DNA of 64,000 bases. Origin: Gammaproteobacteria bacterium. GTDB lineage: Bacteria > Pseudomonadota > Gammaproteobacteria > G965277405. Shown piece after piece: positions 52,763 through 59,078 of this stretch (the first letter of the stretch is position 1; every line of letters starts with the position of its first letter). Below the pieces are notes generated by a model, which saw only the letters and a list, made by a program, of their open reading frames with translations, had not been told where the DNA came from and made no database searches. The stretch spans positions 1,888,001 through 1,952,000 of the forward strand of contig OZ255726.1 in assembly GCA_965277405.1 (NCBI GenBank), written 5' to 3'. The position numbers and the translations under genes are program-made.

Positions 52763-54148
52763 TTAATTCAATGCGTATGCAGGAAACCAAGTAATTAGGC
52801 TAGGCCAGATAATCACAATTATCAATAGCACCGCCTGCATTGCCACAAAAGGAATAATCCCTGTATAAATATCGGTTGTTTTTACATCAGCTGGGGCAAC
52901 ACTGCGCAGATAAAATAAGCTAAAGCCAAACGGCGGTGTTAGGAATGACGATTGTAATACAATCGCAAATACCACTCCCAACCAGACTGGGTCAAAGCCA
53001 AAGTGGAATAACGCTGGGGCGATGATTGGAATCAAGACTATCGAGATCTCGATAAAGTCTAAGAAGAACCCAAGGACAAACATCGTCAGCAAAACCATTA
53101 TCAGCAGCATCGTCGCGCTTAAGCCGCTGTCTTTAAACCAGCCGATAATCATTTCGTCACCACCAAAACCTCTAAAAACCAGTGAAAACAAATACGCGCC
53201 GATAAAGATAAACATAATTCTGGCGGTAATTGAAGCTGTGGTAAAGCTAGAATTTTTTAATATTATTAGCTTAAACCTGCCATAAATAATCGAGAGTAAC
53301 AGCACGCCAACACAGCCAATTGCCGCAGACTCAGTTGGGGTGGCAAGACCAAGCAATATCGAGCCTAACACCGATATTATTAAAAATAAACACGGTATAA
53401 TCGAGATCACGAGATACCAAACTATATTCTTATCACCAATTAACTCTTGTTTTAATTCTGTAGTGATGCTCGGCATTAGGTCTTTCTTCCATAGCGCAAT
53501 TGTGAAGATGAGCAGGCAATACAACCCAACTAAAATCAACCCTGGGATTAACGCACCAAAGAATAAATCACCAATCGACACCGTGATTGACGAAAAGTTA
53601 CCCATTTGTGATTGGGCGAGTTGGTATGAATTACTGACAACATCACCAAGAATGATGAGTACAAGCGACGGGGGAATGAGTTGCCCGAGTGTGCCAGCTG
53701 CTGCGACAACACCAGTGGCAAGTTTTTTGTTGTAGCCGTATTGCAACATTGTGGGTAAACAGAGAATTCCAAGCGTGGTGACGGATGCGCCAACAACACC
53801 GGTACTGGCAGCGAGCAACATGCCGATAATGACTACAGAAATTGCCAAACCGCCAGGAATACGGCTAAACGCCACCGCCATGCCGTTAATGAGATCTTTG
53901 GCTAGATTGCTTTGATCGAGCATACACCCCATAAAAATAAACAGCGGTAGGGCAATCAGCAACTCGTTTTGCATTAAACCATAAATTCTGTTGATCCATG
54001 CATCGAAAAATGACATGTCGAATGCACCGATAGATGCGCCCAAAACACCAAAAATTAAGCTGACGCCGGCTAGAGTTGGAGCTACTGGGTATCCTAAAAG
54101 AATCGCGATAAACAGCAGCGCAAATAGCACAAGGGCAAGATATTCCAT
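52763..54148 (-). CDS. dctM: TRAP large permease DctM (second system)
   Basis: LIALPLFIFMG, AASTGVVGASV, GTLGQLIPPS, ATPTE, GFFLDFIEI, SFLTPPFGFSLFYLR. Confidence 0.92.
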   Translation of the reverse strand: MEYLALVLFALLFIAILLGYPVAPTLAGVSLIFGVLGASIGAFDMSFFDAWINRIYGLMQNELLIALPLFIFMGCMLDQSNLAKDLINGMAVAFSRIPGGLAISVVIIGMLLAASTGVVGASVTTLGILCLPTMLQYGYNKKLATGVVAAAGTLGQLIPPSLVLIILGDVVSNSYQLAQSQMGNFSSITVSIGDLFFGALIPGLILVGLYCLLIFTIALWKKDLMPSITTELKQELIGDKNIVWYLVISIIPCLFLIISVLGSILLGLATPTESAAIGCVGVLLLSIIYGRFKLIILKNSSFTTASITARIMFIFIGAYLFSLVFRGFGGDEMIIGWFKDSGLSATMLLIMVLLTMFVLGFFLDFIEISIVLIPIIAPALFHFGFDPVWLGVVFAIVLQSSFLTPPFGFSLFYLRSVAPADVKTTDIYTGIIPFVAMQAVLLIIVIIWPSLITWFPAYALN

Positions 54149-54628
54149 TTATGTAATTCGTAATTTTTGGATGTCTTCAATAATATGTGCAACTGTTTGC
54201 ACAATAAGCAGTGCTGGGGTAATGAATAACAGTGTTTTGATGACGAATACCCCAGGTAGACCGCCAGATTGCAATGAGCCTTCTAATATTGCCCATGACC
54301 TTGCTACGTAGTCGATAGCCAAGTATGCCCATAAGCAAAAGGCTGGCAATGCCAAACAGCAATGACCTATCAGGTTAATGTATAGTTGATGTCGCCTACG
54401 CAAACAATTATATAGCGTATCCACTCGAATATGTTCTCGTTGTTGCCATATCCATGGAATTGCCAACATGAAGGCAAAAATATGCAAATAGCTGCCGACT
54501 TCTTGGATAGCGATTGAACCATAATTAAAGCCATATCGCATCGTTGCAACGAAAAACAACACCAAAAAAAGAGGAATGTTCAGATAGCTGGCATGTTCTC
54601 CCAACCAACGAATCACGTTGGAAAACAT
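54149..54628 (-). CDS. dctQ: TRAP small permease DctQ (second system)
   Basis: MRY.FN.GSIAIQE, HIRVD, SW..LEGS...GGLP. Confidence 0.88.
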   Translation of the reverse strand: MFSNVIRWLGEHASYLNIPLFLVLFFVATMRYGFNYGSIAIQEVGSYLHIFAFMLAIPWIWQQREHIRVDTLYNCLRRRHQLYINLIGHCCLALPAFCLWAYLAIDYVARSWAILEGSLQSGGLPGVFVIKTLLFITPALLIVQTVAHIIEDIQKLRIT

Positions 54629-54891
54629 TAATAAATTAGATTTTTTCACAAAAACTATAGTTATGTACCATGCGCAATTAGGGTAGAGTGTGAACACAAT
54701 AAATCAATCACTGTTTTTCTAAAAAATAGAGCTTGTGTGCGCTTTGACATGTGGCTGGGATGCAACATACAAAGATTGATAGCGAGCTCTTGCTTGCTGT
54801 GCATTTTGCTAGCCTTGTTGGTAAAGATGCTGCGCAGCCTTGTATTCATCACGAGAGCGTATATTTTTTCATGCATTTTTGTTGTACTTAA

Positions 54892-54917
54892 GGAACTTTT
54901 GCTTAAGCAGAGATTCC
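54892..54917. repeat. Collapsed MITE: fused left and right TIRs
   Basis: TTAA|GGAACTTTTGCTTAAGCAGAGATTCC|TT, a quasi-palindrome made of the two element ends sharing the CTTAAG core. Confidence 0.65.
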
Positions 54918-55108
54918 TTCATTTACATTTTACTCAAGAGCAGGTGTAGCGTGTGGTATGAACGTATACATAGGTTCAGATACAGTGAATAAAACAGCAT
55001 ATATAGTAAAACTCGAGTGTGTATAACCCATGTAAAATAAGGGGGAATGAATAAGATGCTTAGGATGCTTAGGAATAAACTACACACAAAGCTACACACT
55101 AATAACAC

Positions 55109-56084
55109 ATGGCTACTTTTAACAAACAACCAAACGGGAAAGTTCGGGCGGCAGTTTTTGCCAGCGGTCGCCGATATACTAAAGTCTTAGACACTGCCAC
55201 ATTAGCCAAAAAATGGGCGGCGACAATAGAAGCTCAGTCTCATGCACCTGTTGGTTCGAATCTGCTATTAAGCGACGTTTTGCGACGATATAGGGATGAG
55301 GTTTCTTCACGTAAGAAAACAGCTATCTACGAGGAAAGGCGCATTAACGCAATTTCTAGCGGTTTTTTGGGACAAATGCGTATAGCGAACATTACAAGCC
55401 CAACATATTGCAAAATGGCGGGATATGGAGCTTGAGCGCGTTCTAACAAGCACGGTGAATAGGTATTTAGGGTTTTTGTTCACCGTTTTTAATCACTCTA
55501 TACGTGAATGGCAAATAATCACCATTAACCCCGTTTCTCAAATTAAACGACCAAAAAACCCCGCGCACCGCGATAGGTTGATTTCCGATGATGAAATTCA
55601 CACAATTTGCAAAGCTCTCAACCACGCCGAGATGCGCCCTACAAATAAAGCTCAAGAGCTTGCTATTATGTTTTTACTAGCAATTGAAACCGCCTGCCGC
55701 TTGGGCGAATTGTGCGGTATTTTATGGGAGAATGTTGATTTAAACAAACGGACAATATTGTTGTTGGACACTAAAAACGGTGACAATAGAGCTGTGCCAC
55801 TTTCAACGCGAGCTGTTGAATTGATGCAACTAATGACTGGGCTATATACAAGATACGTGTTTATCTTGCAAGCTCATAACGCTAGCGTGATGTTCCACTT
55901 ACGAATTGCGCAAACTGGCATTAAAAATTTACGTTTTCATGACACGCGGCATGAAGCTATTACTCGACTTTCTAAAAAGCTCGACGTGCTGGCGTTAGCT
56001 CGCTGTGTTGGGCATAAAGACATCAAGCAGCTAATGACGTACTATAATGAAACTGCTGAGGATTTAGCGCGGCGGTTAGATTGA
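55109..56084 (+). pseudogene. Tyrosine recombinase/integrase (Rci/HP1-like), split by a +1 frameshift
   Basis: ETACRLGE (R), TKNG (K), FHDTRHE (HxxR), VGH, TYY. Removing one C at 55399-55401 joins ORFs 55109-55435 and 55425-56084 (ITSQHIAKWRDMELERV.STVNR). Confidence 0.88.
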
Positions 56085-56153
56085 GGACGCTATAACAGCA
56101 ACTATAAGCATAAGTACTACTGAACCATAGCAAATATAATCGTATTTATTCAT
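56076..56153 (-). CDS. 25-aa single-TM micropeptide (MNKYDYICYGSVVLMLIVAVIASSI)
   Basis: Manual translation; start overlaps the stop of the upstream micro-ORF. Confidence 0.4.
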   Translation of the reverse strand: MNKYDYICYGSVVLMLIVAVIASSI

Positions 56154-56313
56154 TGGTAAACCATGTCGCACAATATATAAAAACACCCACACCAATTAAC
56201 AAGCCACCCTGTCGTTTCTTTTGGTCGAGAGCCATCCCTAAAGCACCACCAATGATAAACCCGGAGGCGACGCTTTTCAAGTCTTGTTTAATCTCCGAGG
56301 TGATATGCATCAT
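56146..56313 (-). CDS. 55-aa hydrophobic micro-protein (two Gly-rich hydrophobic segments)
   Basis: MMHITSEIKQDLKSVASGFIIGGALGMALDQKKRQGGLLIGVGVFIYCATWFTNE; ATGA-coupled to the upstream ORF. Confidence 0.55.
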   Translation of the reverse strand: MMHITSEIKQDLKSVASGFIIGGALGMALDQKKRQGGLLIGVGVFIYCATWFTNE

Positions 56314-56450
56314 GCTTTTCTTTTACGCGAGCAACATTTTGCACGAACTATCCGCCCACCTTTTACAAATCGATAGCCCTTTTTTAAAATGCAGTTACTT
56401 TTACCGCGCATTGCGGTTCCTTTAGTTACACCTCCTCTTTTACGCCTCAT
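56310..56450 (-). CDS. 46-aa highly basic micro-protein
   Basis: MRRKRGGVTKGTAMRGKSNCILKKGYRFVKGGRIVRAKCCSRKRKA; GGAG SD upstream; ATGA overlap downstream. Confidence 0.6.
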   Translation of the reverse strand: MRRKRGGVTKGTAMRGKSNCILKKGYRFVKGGRIVRAKCCSRKRKA

Positions 56451-56508
56451 TTTATTTTAATCTCCAAAAATTCAATTCGCAGCTCAAGCTCTCGCAATAG
56501 CTGACCAT

Positions 56509-56874
56509 TTAAATACAGCTGCTTACATCTTGGATTGTCTTTAGAAGTGCTATTGGAACAGGCACGCATGACTTTAATTGTTTTGGACTCCTATCAGTCC
56601 GCCACCTGTCCCACGCAGCATCTTCTTCAGCCACATTTGCAGCCACATTTGCAGCCAGCTGCTGGCGGCTAAAATAGTTCATAATTTCGTGTAATTTCCA
56701 CCGCAACAAGCACCCGCATCCGCTTCCCAAATCAACTCCGCGCGGAAAATCACTTTTATCAACCAATAAACGCACAGAGCTCGCTGATATTTTAAACAGC
56801 GCACCGATTTGCTTCATGCCGACAAAAGTCACACCGTCACAGTCGAGCACTTTCCCATCTTTAACTTTTTTCAT
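56509..56874 (-). CDS. AlpA/excisionase-like winged-HTH protein
   Basis: GMKQIGALFKISASSVRLLV..DFPRGVDLG....RWKLHEI, the AlpA/Xis FP.P..LG...RW...E pattern; GGAG SD; divergent from the repressor. Confidence 0.75.
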   Translation of the reverse strand: MKKVKDGKVLDCDGVTFVGMKQIGALFKISASSVRLLVDKSDFPRGVDLGSGCGCLLRWKLHEIMNYFSRQQLAANVAANVAEEDAAWDRWRTDRSPKQLKSCVPVPIALLKTIQDVSSCI

Positions 56875-57022
56875 TCCAAACACTCCGTTTTACTCCCCAA
56901 TTCCCACAAATTCCGCTATCTTCCCAAAGTGCGGAGTTATATGCTCCGCACCTGGAGGAATGCAGCGCTTTAGCCCGGGGAAAGGCTGTACATGGCGCAC
57001 TAGCCATTTTGTGAATGCAACC

Positions 57023-57075
57023 ACTCGTTTATGAGTAGTTGTATATAATCTATATACTCATTTATGAGTTGTCAA
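57023..57075. promoter_or_regulatory. Divergent promoter switch with two 14-bp palindromic operators
   Basis: ACTCGTTTATGAGT (57023-57036) and ACTCATTTATGAGT (57056-57069). Leftward TTGACA(57075-57070)-17bp-TAGATT; rightward TATAAT at 57044-57049. Confidence 0.75.
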
Positions 57076-57077
57076 GA

Positions 57078-57356
57078 ATGCTGTCAAAAAAAATAAAAGA
57101 AATACGAAAAATGCAAGAACTGACGCAAATGGAATTCTGCAAGATGTTTGATATAGGCTACTCATCGCTTGGGCATTATGAAAGCGGGCGAAGTATACCG
57201 TCGGGGGATGTTTTAATAAAAATCTGCGCACAATACCCAGAATACGCCGCATGGCTACTGACCGACGACCGCACAGCTCTCAACACCGAACAGACCACAC
57301 CCGCCGCCGAAGCGCTTAAAAAAGCGGATACAACTCTATCAAAAAAAACGGGGTAA
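57078..57356 (+). CDS. XRE-family repressor, P2 C / Pf-phage repressor-like
   Basis: KIKEIRK..ELTQ.EF...DIGYSSLGHYESGRSIPS.DVL.KI...YPEYAAWLLT...Q.TP pattern as in P2 C-type repressors. Confidence 0.85.
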   Translation: MLSKKIKEIRKMQELTQMEFCKMFDIGYSSLGHYESGRSIPSGDVLIKICAQYPEYAAWLLTDDRTALNTEQTTPAAEALKKADTTLSKKTG

Positions 57357-57452
57357 AATTCTATTTTAAATAAAAACTACACAAAAATCACACACAAACC
57401 CCAAAAAACCCAGCAACTACAAGGGTTATAACGTCCGATACAGGGAAATTAT

Positions 57453-59078
57453 ATGGCAAGCCGTCATGATTATATAATTATTGGCGCAGGGCACAATGGC
57501 TTGGTCTGCGCCAATTATCTTGCGAAAGCACGCAAATCTGTGCTGATTGTCGAAGCACGCAATATCGTCGGCGGTGCTGCGGTCACTGAAGAAGTTTTTG
57601 AGGGCTATAAATTTTCACGGTTTTCGTATGTGTTGGGCGTTTTTAGACAAAAAGTAATAGACGAATTGTTTCCTGATAATTGGCGGGAACATGTCCCGCT
57701 ATATAAAGTTGAGTCAACGCTGTGCATTCCAGGAAAAAAAGTCGATGACTTTGTATTGCTGAGCCACGACGCAGACATTTCATACGCCAATATCAAGGCA
57801 TATGCGGGTGAGCAAGAGGCAGAAAACTATACTCGATTGATGCTCCGCATCGCTGATATATCACATAGCATCTCCCCATTGCTCGATACAGCTCCTATCG
57901 AGTCGCTTTGGTGCGCGTTCAAAAAACTGCCGTTGAGTAAGCTACCACGTCAGCAGAAAATTGATGAAGTCATGACATTCCTTAGCTCCAGCTGCGCCAA
58001 CGTATTAGATCAATGGCTAGAAAATGATCGGTTAAAAGCTGCATTGTCATATTCTGGCACTATAGGGATGGCGCTCTCACCGTATAGTCCAGGCACAGCA
58101 TTTTCACAATTGCACCATGTTGCAAATACCATTAAAGACGAGCAAGGCGAACAGAAATTTAGATATTACCCGCGCGGCGGTAATGGCAGCATCACCCAGT
58201 ATTTAGCGCAATTAGCGCAAGAGCGCGGTGTTATTATCCGCTTGCAAGCAAAAGTAAAGCGCATTTTGGTTGACAATAATACCGCACAGGGAATAGAACT
58301 TGCCAATGGTCAAGTGTGTTATGCCCGCAAAGGCGTGATTTCTAATGCGACATACAACGTAACGTTCAAACAATTAATCGATGAGAAAATCGACTTACCA
58401 GCAAGTTTTGCACGCGGGTTGAAGGTTATTCCATACCAAACCAACTGCACAAAAATCAACCTAGTGATTGACAAAATTCCACAATTTACTTGTTTAAAAA
58501 ATGTGCTGCCACTCGATGGCAACTTTACGCAAAACTGTCATGCAGCAGCGCAATATCTGCTGAATGTGATTTTGGCTGGCGATTCAATGGAGCACCTCCA
58601 TCAATGTTATTTAGCAGCAGAGCAAAAAAAGATGTCGACCCAACCAATTATCCAAATGCTAATACCGTCGCTAGTCGACGATAGCTTAACCCCTGATGGC
58701 AGCGAGCACCTCGTTGCCATGCTATTTACCCAATACACCCCGTATGACGTCAAGGGCGGTTGGGATGAAACAAACCGTCAGCAATTTATGAGCAATGTAT
58801 TGCGACGCATCGACAGCTACGCACCAGGGTTTAGCGAATCCATAGTTCACCAAGACGTGTTGTTTCCACCCGATATAGAAACAGTCTTGAATATGACCGG
58901 CGGCAACATATTCCATGGCGCGTTAACGCTGGATAATATATTTTCTGCCAGACCGATGCCGCGCCATTCACAATATCAAACACCTATTGAAAATTTATAC
59001 AGCTGTTCAGCGGCAAACCATCCTGGTGGCGGTGTTTCTGGTGGTCCTGGCCGCAACTGTGCCCAAGCGATTTTATAA
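57453..59078 (+). CDS. Phytoene dehydrogenase-like FAD oxidoreductase (PYROXD2-like)
   Basis: IGAGHNGLVCA, VGGAAVTEE, YPRGG.G, GGNIFHG, ARP...Y.TPI.NLY.C....HPGGGVSG.PG.N. Confidence 0.85.
   Translation: MASRHDYIIIGAGHNGLVCANYLAKARKSVLIVEARNIVGGAAVTEEVFEGYKFSRFSYVLGVFRQKVIDELFPDNWREHVPLYKVESTLCIPGKKVDDFVLLSHDADISYANIKAYAGEQEAENYTRLMLRIADISHSISPLLDTAPIESLWCAFKKLPLSKLPRQQKIDEVMTFLSSSCANVLDQWLENDRLKAALSYSGTIGMALSPYSPGTAFSQLHHVANTIKDEQGEQKFRYYPRGGNGSITQYLAQLAQERGVIIRLQAKVKRILVDNNTAQGIELANGQVCYARKGVISNATYNVTFKQLIDEKIDLPASFARGLKVIPYQTNCTKINLVIDKIPQFTCLKNVLPLDGNFTQNCHAAAQYLLNVILAGDSMEHLHQCYLAAEQKKMSTQPIIQMLIPSLVDDSLTPDGSEHLVAMLFTQYTPYDVKGGWDETNRQQFMSNVLRRIDSYAPGFSESIVHQDVLFPPDIETVLNMTGGNIFHGALTLDNIFSARPMPRHSQYQTPIENLYSCSAANHPGGGVSGGPGRNCAQAIL

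Follow-up and report, generated by a model that had tools for sequence, protein, structure and literature searches.

We analysed a 64,000-nt stretch of a gammaproteobacterial genome (contig OZ255726.1, positions 1,888,001 to 1,952,000; hereafter the window, from whose first letter coordinates are counted unless the genome is named) and describe here a phage-type island of about 2.4 kb that lies in it between dctQ and a FAD-dependent oxidoreductase gene. The genome is a single 2.17-Mb contig, and the genomes compared included no relatives closer than class. From left to right, the island carries a tyrosine integrase, four small open reading frames (ORFs; orf55, orf46, orf40 and orf121) that all point leftward, toward the integrase, a spacer with two 17-nt repeats, and a repressor gene, with short repeats at both ends. 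Its GC content resembles that of the surroundings. No island ORF matched a replication, capsid, packaging or conjugation family, or a defence, toxin or holin family, in Pfam, PHROGs, PADLOC and NCBIfam; the same collections gave no primase, replicase or helper-exploiting family, and neither a relaxase nor a capsid-redirecting gene was present among the island ORFs. The 64-kb window contains no tRNA or tmRNA gene, Rfam returned nothing for the island at E <= 1, and nucleotide searches with the island against plasmids and phages gave no match. A preliminary description of this DNA had already remarked on the missing tRNA target and on the missing replication, capsid, packaging and conjugation genes, and these statements were borne out.

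The integrase was identified by its catalytic domain (PF00589, E = 1.9e-22), as the preliminary description had proposed, but it is not a single intact gene: it lies in two frames. The N-terminal ORF (55109-55435, + strand, frame A) encodes 108 aa comprising the arm-binding part and the start of the core-binding part (phrog_1, E = 4e-5), while the C-terminal ORF with the catalytic domain (55425-56084, + strand, frame B) encodes 219 aa from its first ATG (phrog_1, E = 4e-43). Frame B is open from 55386, following a stop at 55383-55385, and frame A terminates at 55433-55435. In the alignment to an intact 355-aa relative that is 48-49% identical (genome G370), frame A corresponds to residues 32-127 and frame B takes over from residue 127, which places the reading-frame break at about 55388-55397 (+ strand). 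At all four related loci in which both halves were matched (L021, L022, L024 and L004), the halves lie in one frame, as derived by hand from the match coordinates; the N-terminal match at locus L023 was insignificant (E = 0.023), and L005 had no N-terminal match.

The same split was recovered in contigs of three public runs of one study (X1, X2 and X3), which may include the source sample of the assembly and whose independence is uncertain. A 7.6-kb contig of X1, at a depth of 232, shows no difference from the window over 53000-56074, the break site included. A 7.9-kb contig of X2 spans the break with one single-nucleotide polymorphism (SNP; 55452) and no indel, and a 153-nt contig of X3 covering 55313-55465 carries the SNP at 55452 as in X2, again without an indel. 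In an alignment of 12 sequences, the columns R105, K130, H185, R188 and Y219 are invariant and H210 is nearly so; we take these six, from general knowledge of the family, to be the catalytic residues of tyrosine recombinases. Because these columns are still intact, the break looks recent, and it looks like a single lesion. Programmed frameshifting was considered and rejected by eye: the conserved residues of frame B already start before the frame-A stop is reached, and neither a slippery nor a stop-stimulated site was seen.

A search of phage records gave 504 matches to the integrase, the best at 47.7% identity, and the relatives belong to tailed phages and prophages. Relatives at E <= 1e-40 were present in five of 400 other genomes of the class, in one case within a region that resembles a prophage and contains Rep, SSB and, as a neighbour, a xis-like phrog_4996 gene. 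Identity to the nearest relatives is 42-50%, and most of these come from viral contigs of 20-68 kb or prophage-like loci (80 IMG/VR loci fetched). A search restricted to proteins of at least 385 aa, a range that leaves out the natural size class, yielded 26 matches at 30-46% identity. Scans for close relatives found none in IMG/VR, either with the integrase or with the repressor, and four loci at 26-38% identity among genome contigs. The organism's own genome has no second related integrase; the sole other full-length Pfam integrase match is unrelated at E <= 0.001.

At the opposite end of the island, a repressor of 92 aa is encoded from an ATG at 57078 (57078-57356, + strand). It belongs to the C family of phage P2, as the preliminary description had stated: it covers positions 3-99 of the 100 positions of phrog_147 (E = 6e-18), a family that it shares with P2 C itself (6e-39) and with the P2-like Pseudoalteromonas phage ACA2, and it matches Pfam HTH_3 at E = 8.7e-11. 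A tblastn search with the repressor matched 92 phage records, with P2 C at 40% identity (E = 1e-9).

The 203-nt spacer between orf121 and the repressor (56875-57077) contains two 17-nt direct repeats, 33 nt apart and each with a short palindrome (57023-57039 and 57056-57072, + strand), which are candidate operators; the twin operators of the preliminary description were thus confirmed as repeats peculiar to this site, with just these two copies of the operator 14-mer in the 2.17-Mb genome at up to one mismatch. At two mismatches there were ten matches including both operators, and the remaining seven sites were scattered and near the estimated chance number. A promoter-like site for the leftward operon lies at 57047-57075 (- strand; TTGACA, 17 nt, TAGATT; 10 of 12 matches), with one operator covering its -35 and spacer and the other directly downstream of its -10. 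Promoter-like sites are no commoner in the region than in shuffles, so it is the placement between the operators that carries the argument and not the sequence match. From this arrangement, the repressor is predicted to bind the twin operators and probably shuts the leftward promoter; it may also give immunity to related phages. The predicted 5' leader of the leftward operon (56875-57040, - strand), whose start is taken from the promoter match, is unusually structured. The fold of its 166 nt has an energy of -61.8 kcal/mol against -46.9 +/- 4.0 in 200 shuffles (z = -3.7), none of which was as stable, and it includes a hairpin of 10 pairs near 56931-56953 that could be an attenuator or a protein-binding structure.

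The first gene behind the leftward promoter is orf121 (56509-56874, - strand), a possible helix-turn-helix (HTH) protein in the position of Cox or Xis. The AlpA/Xis-like identity that the preliminary description had given it did not stand. The Pfam AlpA match is below the family threshold (E = 0.094), phrog_4996 matches weakly (E = 0.016), and neither phrog_272 nor Pfam Cox matched. Atlas feature scores of 0.93-0.94 linked orf121 to viral HTH, HTH_17 and one Cox cluster and serve as leads only. A search of 5.8 billion clusters returned the protein itself alone; HMMER against 1.84 billion representatives added, besides the protein itself, one marginal match of 38 residues in a 1367-aa protein (E = 2.1e-5). 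There was no tblastn match in phages, and orf121 gave no match when compared pairwise with the xis-like protein encoded next to the closest integrase. The AlphaFold single-sequence model of orf121 is poor (pLDDT, predicted local distance difference test, 47.8) and was unusable as a search query. By these searches, orf121 is an orphan.

Three micro-ORFs follow, and the tight coupling that had been claimed for this operon was confirmed by ATGA start/stop overlaps at 56447-56450 (orf40/orf46) and 56310-56313 (orf46/orf55). The first, orf40 (56447-56569, - strand), overlaps the 3' end of orf121 by 61 nt out of frame; its frame opens at 56590, 21 nt upstream of the ATG, and it matched no family in Pfam or PHROGs. 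The last gene of the operon, orf55 (56146-56313, - strand), encodes a small glycine-rich hydrophobic protein that, judged by its sequence, looks like a small membrane protein; Pfam, PHROGs, PADLOC and NCBIfam gave no family for it, the best phage match had E = 0.6, and the best Atlas score was an uninformative 0.78. Like orf121, neither orf40 nor orf55 had detectable relatives in these searches.

Between them, orf46 (56310-56450, - strand) encodes a small basic peptide with a corticovirus-like homologue. In a pairwise comparison (E = 3e-10), 20 of 35 of its residues are identical to those of a 36-aa protein whose gene closes the late operon of a NO16-like Vibrio corticovirus. In a database-wide tblastn the match had E = 0.06, and all 11 records matched were NO16-like. 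In the reverse direction, a tblastn of all NO16-like ORFs against the organism's own genome placed orf46 at the top (E = 3e-5), and the remaining match was a weak one of 23 residues at 1,143 kb (E = 0.006). A pattern scan of IMG/VR with a three-sequence orf46 alignment gave 40 matches, of which three loci were confirmed. One of them (L026) shares the capsid family phrog_8536 and the ATPase family phrog_2666 with NO16 and has the gene order endolysin, 136-aa ORF, 43-aa hydrophobic ORF, and then the basic peptide gene; another (L028) carries NO16-type regulators, and the third (L027) is a 10.6-kb contig, possibly of a double jelly-roll (DJR) phage. The reference NO16 record leaves the basic peptide gene unannotated, and the available passages of the NO16 structure paper (PMC13552765) make no mention of the peptide. 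In the 5.8-billion database, orf46 matched just an alternative allele of the same organism, on a 95-kb contig.

Such alleles were also resolved in the sequencing runs. The segment 56364-56522 assembles in X1 and X2 as two 159-nt contigs that differ at 14 sites, which define a polymorphic patch at 56394-56492 with two haplotypes of equal length. Depths were 128.6 and 101.2 against a flank of 232 in X1, and 17.5 and 15.6 against a flank of 26-33 in X2, so that each pair adds up to roughly the flank value, at a ratio of about 55:45. The haplotypes are 14% apart over 99 nt, while the other 6.4 kb are identical to the window in X1 and one letter off in X2, and the patch has the look of a short tract brought in by recombination from a diverged relative. 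Between the haplotypes, orf46 has eight changed codons, of which six are synonymous and two cause R5K and T9A, and orf40 has six, of which five are synonymous and one causes I37V; overall, 11 of the 14 changes are synonymous, and neither allele contains a stop. In control frames read straight across the patch, each ORF's own frame among them, 3-7 of 13-14 changed codons were synonymous. Since the changes between haplotypes are mostly synonymous and introduce no stops, orf46 and orf40 are real genes under purifying selection in their annotated frames.

Repeats at the two ends of the island exceed chance. A 13-nt motif occurs as TATAACCCATGTA at 55022-55034 (+ strand) and, 92% complementary to it, as TACAAGGGTTATA at 57418-57430 (+ strand), which upholds the mirror-image end motif of the preliminary description. 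At up to one mismatch the 13-mer has three copies genome-wide, two of which are the island ends in inverted orientation (rough multiple-testing p of about 0.05); from its sequence and placement, it may be a core-type integrase site or an end motif. Further inward on the left, two CTACACA direct repeats 12 nt apart (55077-55102, + strand) end 6 nt before the integrase start and are candidate arm-type integrase sites. A CTACACA-type pair is also present on the right (57374-57398, + strand), so that the paired repeats described earlier do occur at both ends, but the second right-hand copy is degenerate, with two mismatches. The 10-mer AAACTACACA of the right pair is also found at the left end. 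Of the window's six exact CTACACA copies, three are at the island ends. Tandem pairs with at most one mismatch in total number eight in the whole genome, and 12 seven-mers are common to the left and right intergenic regions, where shuffles gave 3.8 +/- 2.6 (P = 0.009). The attachment core that had been suggested, GATACAG (54979-54985 and 57437-57443, + strand), did not withstand comparison with chance. It is the sole 7-mer common to the outer flanks, at least one shared 7-mer appeared in 33% of 3000 shuffles of these flanks, and it is not supported as an att core.

Contigs of X1, X2 and X3 contain neither an empty-site nor a circle joint, which is weak evidence because contigs drop rare forms. 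There is no second copy of the island in the organism's own genome, and an empty-site comparison with 40 relatives, all related at class level only, gave no match to the locus. With a frameshifted integrase, no second related integrase and no excision joint in the contigs, the proposal of an undescribed, self-regulating, ultra-small integrative or satellite-like element was not upheld. The same gene order and size, for which a search had been suggested, was not found: the order did not recur beside the nearest integrase relatives at any of six genome loci, and among the 80 viral integrase loci (up to 10 kb of DNA each, often from one side only) three had a weak C-like match and seven had DnaB, with no other island genes, and none had a DJR capsid, ATPase or basic peptide.

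Two observations in the runs concern related or variant forms. A diverged copy of the integrase (matching 55652-55690 and 56007-56087 of the window) lies on other contigs of 2.8-3.7 kb in X1 and X2, with 11 differences in 81 nt and five in 39 nt over the matched pieces. The depth of these contigs is about 17.5 in both runs while that of the host goes from 232 to 26; this independence from the host places the related element in another community genome. Separately, one X1 contig (depth 12.6 against 232) joins 56082 to 56321 and so lacks 238 nt; one side of the joint is the integrase stop, and the other lies just upstream of where orf55 starts. The joint may represent a minority form that lacks orf55 or has it replaced; it is weak, with 30 letters on the short side.

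Other phage debris is scattered through the genome. A second fragment of a C-family repressor lies at G000:C1:626,832-626,951 (L009) and corresponds to residues 47-86 at 53% identity with an in-frame TAG; its surroundings consist of short broken ORFs, one of which looks by eye like a methyltransferase fragment with an NPPY motif. A 51-aa C-terminal integrase fragment is found at 1,004 kb. P2-like baseplate, sheath, tube, tape-measure, gpU, gpX and gpD genes at 29-48% identity occupy 966,800-977,900 and 728,500-732,300, with no match to a P2 portal, terminase or capsid anywhere in the genome, and these clusters could be a tailocin-like cluster or the remnant of a head-less prophage. In addition, an inverted, near-identical pair of segments (G000:C1:857,300-858,700 and 1,423,700-1,425,100) carries in each copy a gpD-like late-gene fragment together with a gene 56-58% identical to a Burkholderia phage ORF.

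Comparison with known systems places the regulatory region closest to P2-like phages. In P2, the -10 of the opposing promoter lies between two direct-repeat operators. The island likewise pairs a C-family repressor (phrog_147) with a small, DNA-binding-like first gene after the opposing promoter, and its two direct-repeat operators appear, by sequence, to bracket the -10 of the early promoter. It departs from P2 in that orf121 is not of the Cox family, its 17-nt operators are spaced 33 nt apart, the integrase gene does not lie downstream of C in the integrated order, and the B, A and late genes are missing. In phage ACA2, the operon that the repressor faces runs leftward through excisionase, cox and small ORFs to the replication genes B and A; the island has the same layout without the replication genes. 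With phage satellites (P4-like elements, phage-inducible chromosomal islands (PICIs) and PICI-like elements (PLEs)) and small mobilisable elements it shares an integrase, a small regulatory module and possibly an AlpA/Xis-like gene. Satellites and small integrative mobilisable elements are, however, several-fold larger. Unlike them, the island lacks a primase, replicase, relaxase and capsid-redirecting gene, its integrase is broken, and no matching helper phage was seen in the genome, which holds tail clusters only.

The other end of the island resembles the integrase-type DJR prophages of the NO16/PM2 type. Ma and Zhang (PMC12715192) describe such prophages as 13.9 +/- 0.9 kb long, with Int, a repressor and sometimes Xis, with Int as the invariant terminal gene and with a variable region between int and the lysis gene. 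In the island, too, Int lies at one terminus; in these prophages, according to that paper (PMC12715192), the end of the late or lysis operon with small membrane and basic proteins adjoins int, as the micro-ORFs do here, and orf46 has its homologue in the small basic gene at the end of NO16-like genomes. In NO16, nearly all genes form one long unit that runs from the regulatory region round the circle to the small basic gene, convergent with the regulators. The island differs in lacking a DJR capsid, a packaging ATPase and a rolling-circle Rep, in its repressor (P2 C type against phrog_4441/638 in NO16), and in its size of 2.4 kb against about 10-14 kb. Finally, it has much in common with cryptic prophage remnants: a subset of lysogeny genes, missing virion and replication genes, a lesion in the integrase and other debris in the genome. 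For such a remnant it is unusually small (about 2.4 kb) and tidy, with both ends and the whole switch kept, and its middle was apparently lost in one clean step.

On this evidence, we consider it likely that the island is the immobile, recently decayed stub of a small temperate phage, consisting of its lysogeny module and distal late genes. We favour this reading because the integrase is broken, replication, packaging and transfer genes are missing, the parts have relatives in full phages, and other debris is present in the genome; it also fits the literature (PMC12715192), and no second copy, related integrase or operator exists elsewhere in the genome. As far as could be tested, the results are those that the preliminary description had said would refute its reading, and the trimmed prophage that it had offered as its alternative is favoured, the recognisable genes having relatives in full-length phages. 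Of the lysogeny module, the tyrosine integrase (with its arm-binding N-terminus), the P2 C-family repressor and the divergent promoter region containing both operators would survive; of the lytic genes, a putative DNA-binding first gene and three coupled micro-genes, among them the corticovirus-type basic peptide.

The arrangement can be derived from a simple ancestral map. The phage circle would have read repressor, attP, int, and then the end of a single long operon that started at the switch and was convergent with int. On integration, int would have come to lie first, followed by the end of the late operon, the virion and replication genes, orf121, the switch and, last, the repressor. Losing the replication and virion genes in one internal deletion would be enough to yield the 2.4-kb arrangement, and with int and the repressor at opposite ends of the prophage, such a deletion preserves both ends. 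Its junction could lie at the 61-nt overlap of orf121 and orf40, where no scar is demonstrable. A one-base frame change would then have split the integrase, leaving a stub that cannot move unaided, with the arm-type repeats and the 13-nt inverted repeat as putative relics of attL and attR. The repressor would be made from a promoter that overlaps the leftward one and would keep orf121, orf40, orf46 and orf55 silent.

Several points weigh against this reconstruction. Neither an empty site nor a full-length relative nor a scar of the deletion was seen, and the deletion itself is read from the gene order. The ancestor is ambiguous, with the sequence of the repressor suggesting P2-like myoviruses and that of orf46 corticovirus-like phages; the parts thus point to more than one phage lineage, as is common in phage mosaics. 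The match of orf46 is short, with its database-wide E of 0.06, and convincing in pairwise and reverse searches only, and within the stretches of up to 10 kb fetched, the 80 nearest viral integrase loci are without DJR capsid, ATPase and basic peptide. The switch, the four small ORFs and the catalytic residues of the integrase are undamaged, and the haplotypes of the micro-ORFs show purifying selection, a combination that would suit a recent wreck and a still-useful unit alike. At both ends, the repeats likewise look kept.

A still-useful unit could be a switch-controlled peptide cassette domesticated by the host, which would keep the repressor, the operators and the operon while a dispensable integrase decays. 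The cassette might provide immunity to or exclusion of related phages, or its membrane and basic peptides might kill or lyse infected cells on derepression. We regard this as unlikely, although it would account for the intact repressor, operators, promoter match and four small ORFs, for haplotype differences that are synonymous at 11 of 14 sites with three conservative replacements and no stops, and for the persistence of both haplotypes near 55:45 in two runs amid 6.4 kb of near-invariant surroundings; the unusually structured leader and the membrane-like sequence of orf55 would suit it as well. The synonymous pattern may, however, stem from the past of an active phage, before recombination copied the patch in. 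None of the island ORFs belongs to a known defence, toxin or holin family in the collections searched, and the operators occur nowhere else in the genome, so the switch controls itself only. We think it highly unlikely that the island is instead a non-autonomous mini-element that, in the manner of cis-mobilisable elements, is moved in trans by the integrase of a related phage or element of the same community. The end repeat motifs are kept, a related integrase gene is present on other contigs of X1 and X2, and the patchwise exchange of alleles shows that relatives recombine with the locus. Yet the island is a single copy in one genome that has no related integrase, its ends show no direct-repeat core above chance, a 2.4-kb circle would have no known means of replication or packaging, and the contigs of three runs show no empty-site or circle joint, a weak point given that they drop rare forms.

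The remaining alternative is that the integrase is intact, the break being an assembly or sequencing error, and the island a self-sufficient minimal element. Long-read assemblies can contain indels, the genome is a single contig and the rest of the integrase is undamaged. Against this, the contig builds of three runs, one at a depth of 232, show no indel across 55313-55465 (the independence of the runs is not proven), X2 and X3 carry the SNP at 55452 and yet have the same frame structure, and the break site is not a long homopolymer; we judge an error of this kind extremely improbable.

To the left of the island, dctQ (54149-54697, - strand; Pfam DctQ, E = 9.8e-16) forms with dctM a pair of tripartite ATP-independent periplasmic (TRAP) transporter genes (52763-54697) without an adjacent dctP; 11 DctP genes are located elsewhere in the genome, the nearest about 20 kb away. 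The island occupies the usual place of dctP, and its insertion or a later deletion may have removed that gene. On the right lies the FAD-dependent oxidoreductase gene (57453-59078, + strand; Pfam search), which starts 96 nt downstream of the repressor. No terminator-like site was found between the repressor stop and the oxidoreductase start (57357-57452), so the oxidoreductase may now be transcribed from the repressor promoter.

As a decayed prophage stub, the island belongs to a kind that is already known, the defective prophage remnant with a P2-type immunity region, and in this respect it is ordinary. Three features are new: how compact the stub is, the presence of a corticovirus-type terminal peptide together with a P2 C-type switch, and the population evidence for selection on ORFs of 40-46 codons. 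The locus carries a warning for the interpretation of small islands, as preserved ends can simply follow when a prophage has int at one terminus and the repressor at the other. It also illustrates that population haplotypes alone can validate micro-ORFs of 40-46 codons, and it extends a corticovirus-like basic peptide, left unannotated in the record of NO16, to a bacterium that branches deeply and lacks near relatives among the genomes compared. A bolder proposal, which we hold to be decidedly unlikely, is that the stub is a selected, repressor-gated micro-peptide cassette derived from a tailless corticovirus-like phage. A related phage or stress would lift repression, the peptides would exclude the phage or lyse the cell, and the polymorphism would be kept by exchange with circulating relatives. 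If the peptides were indeed repressor-gated agents of exclusion or lysis, the island would be a very compact case of phage parts turned to host use.

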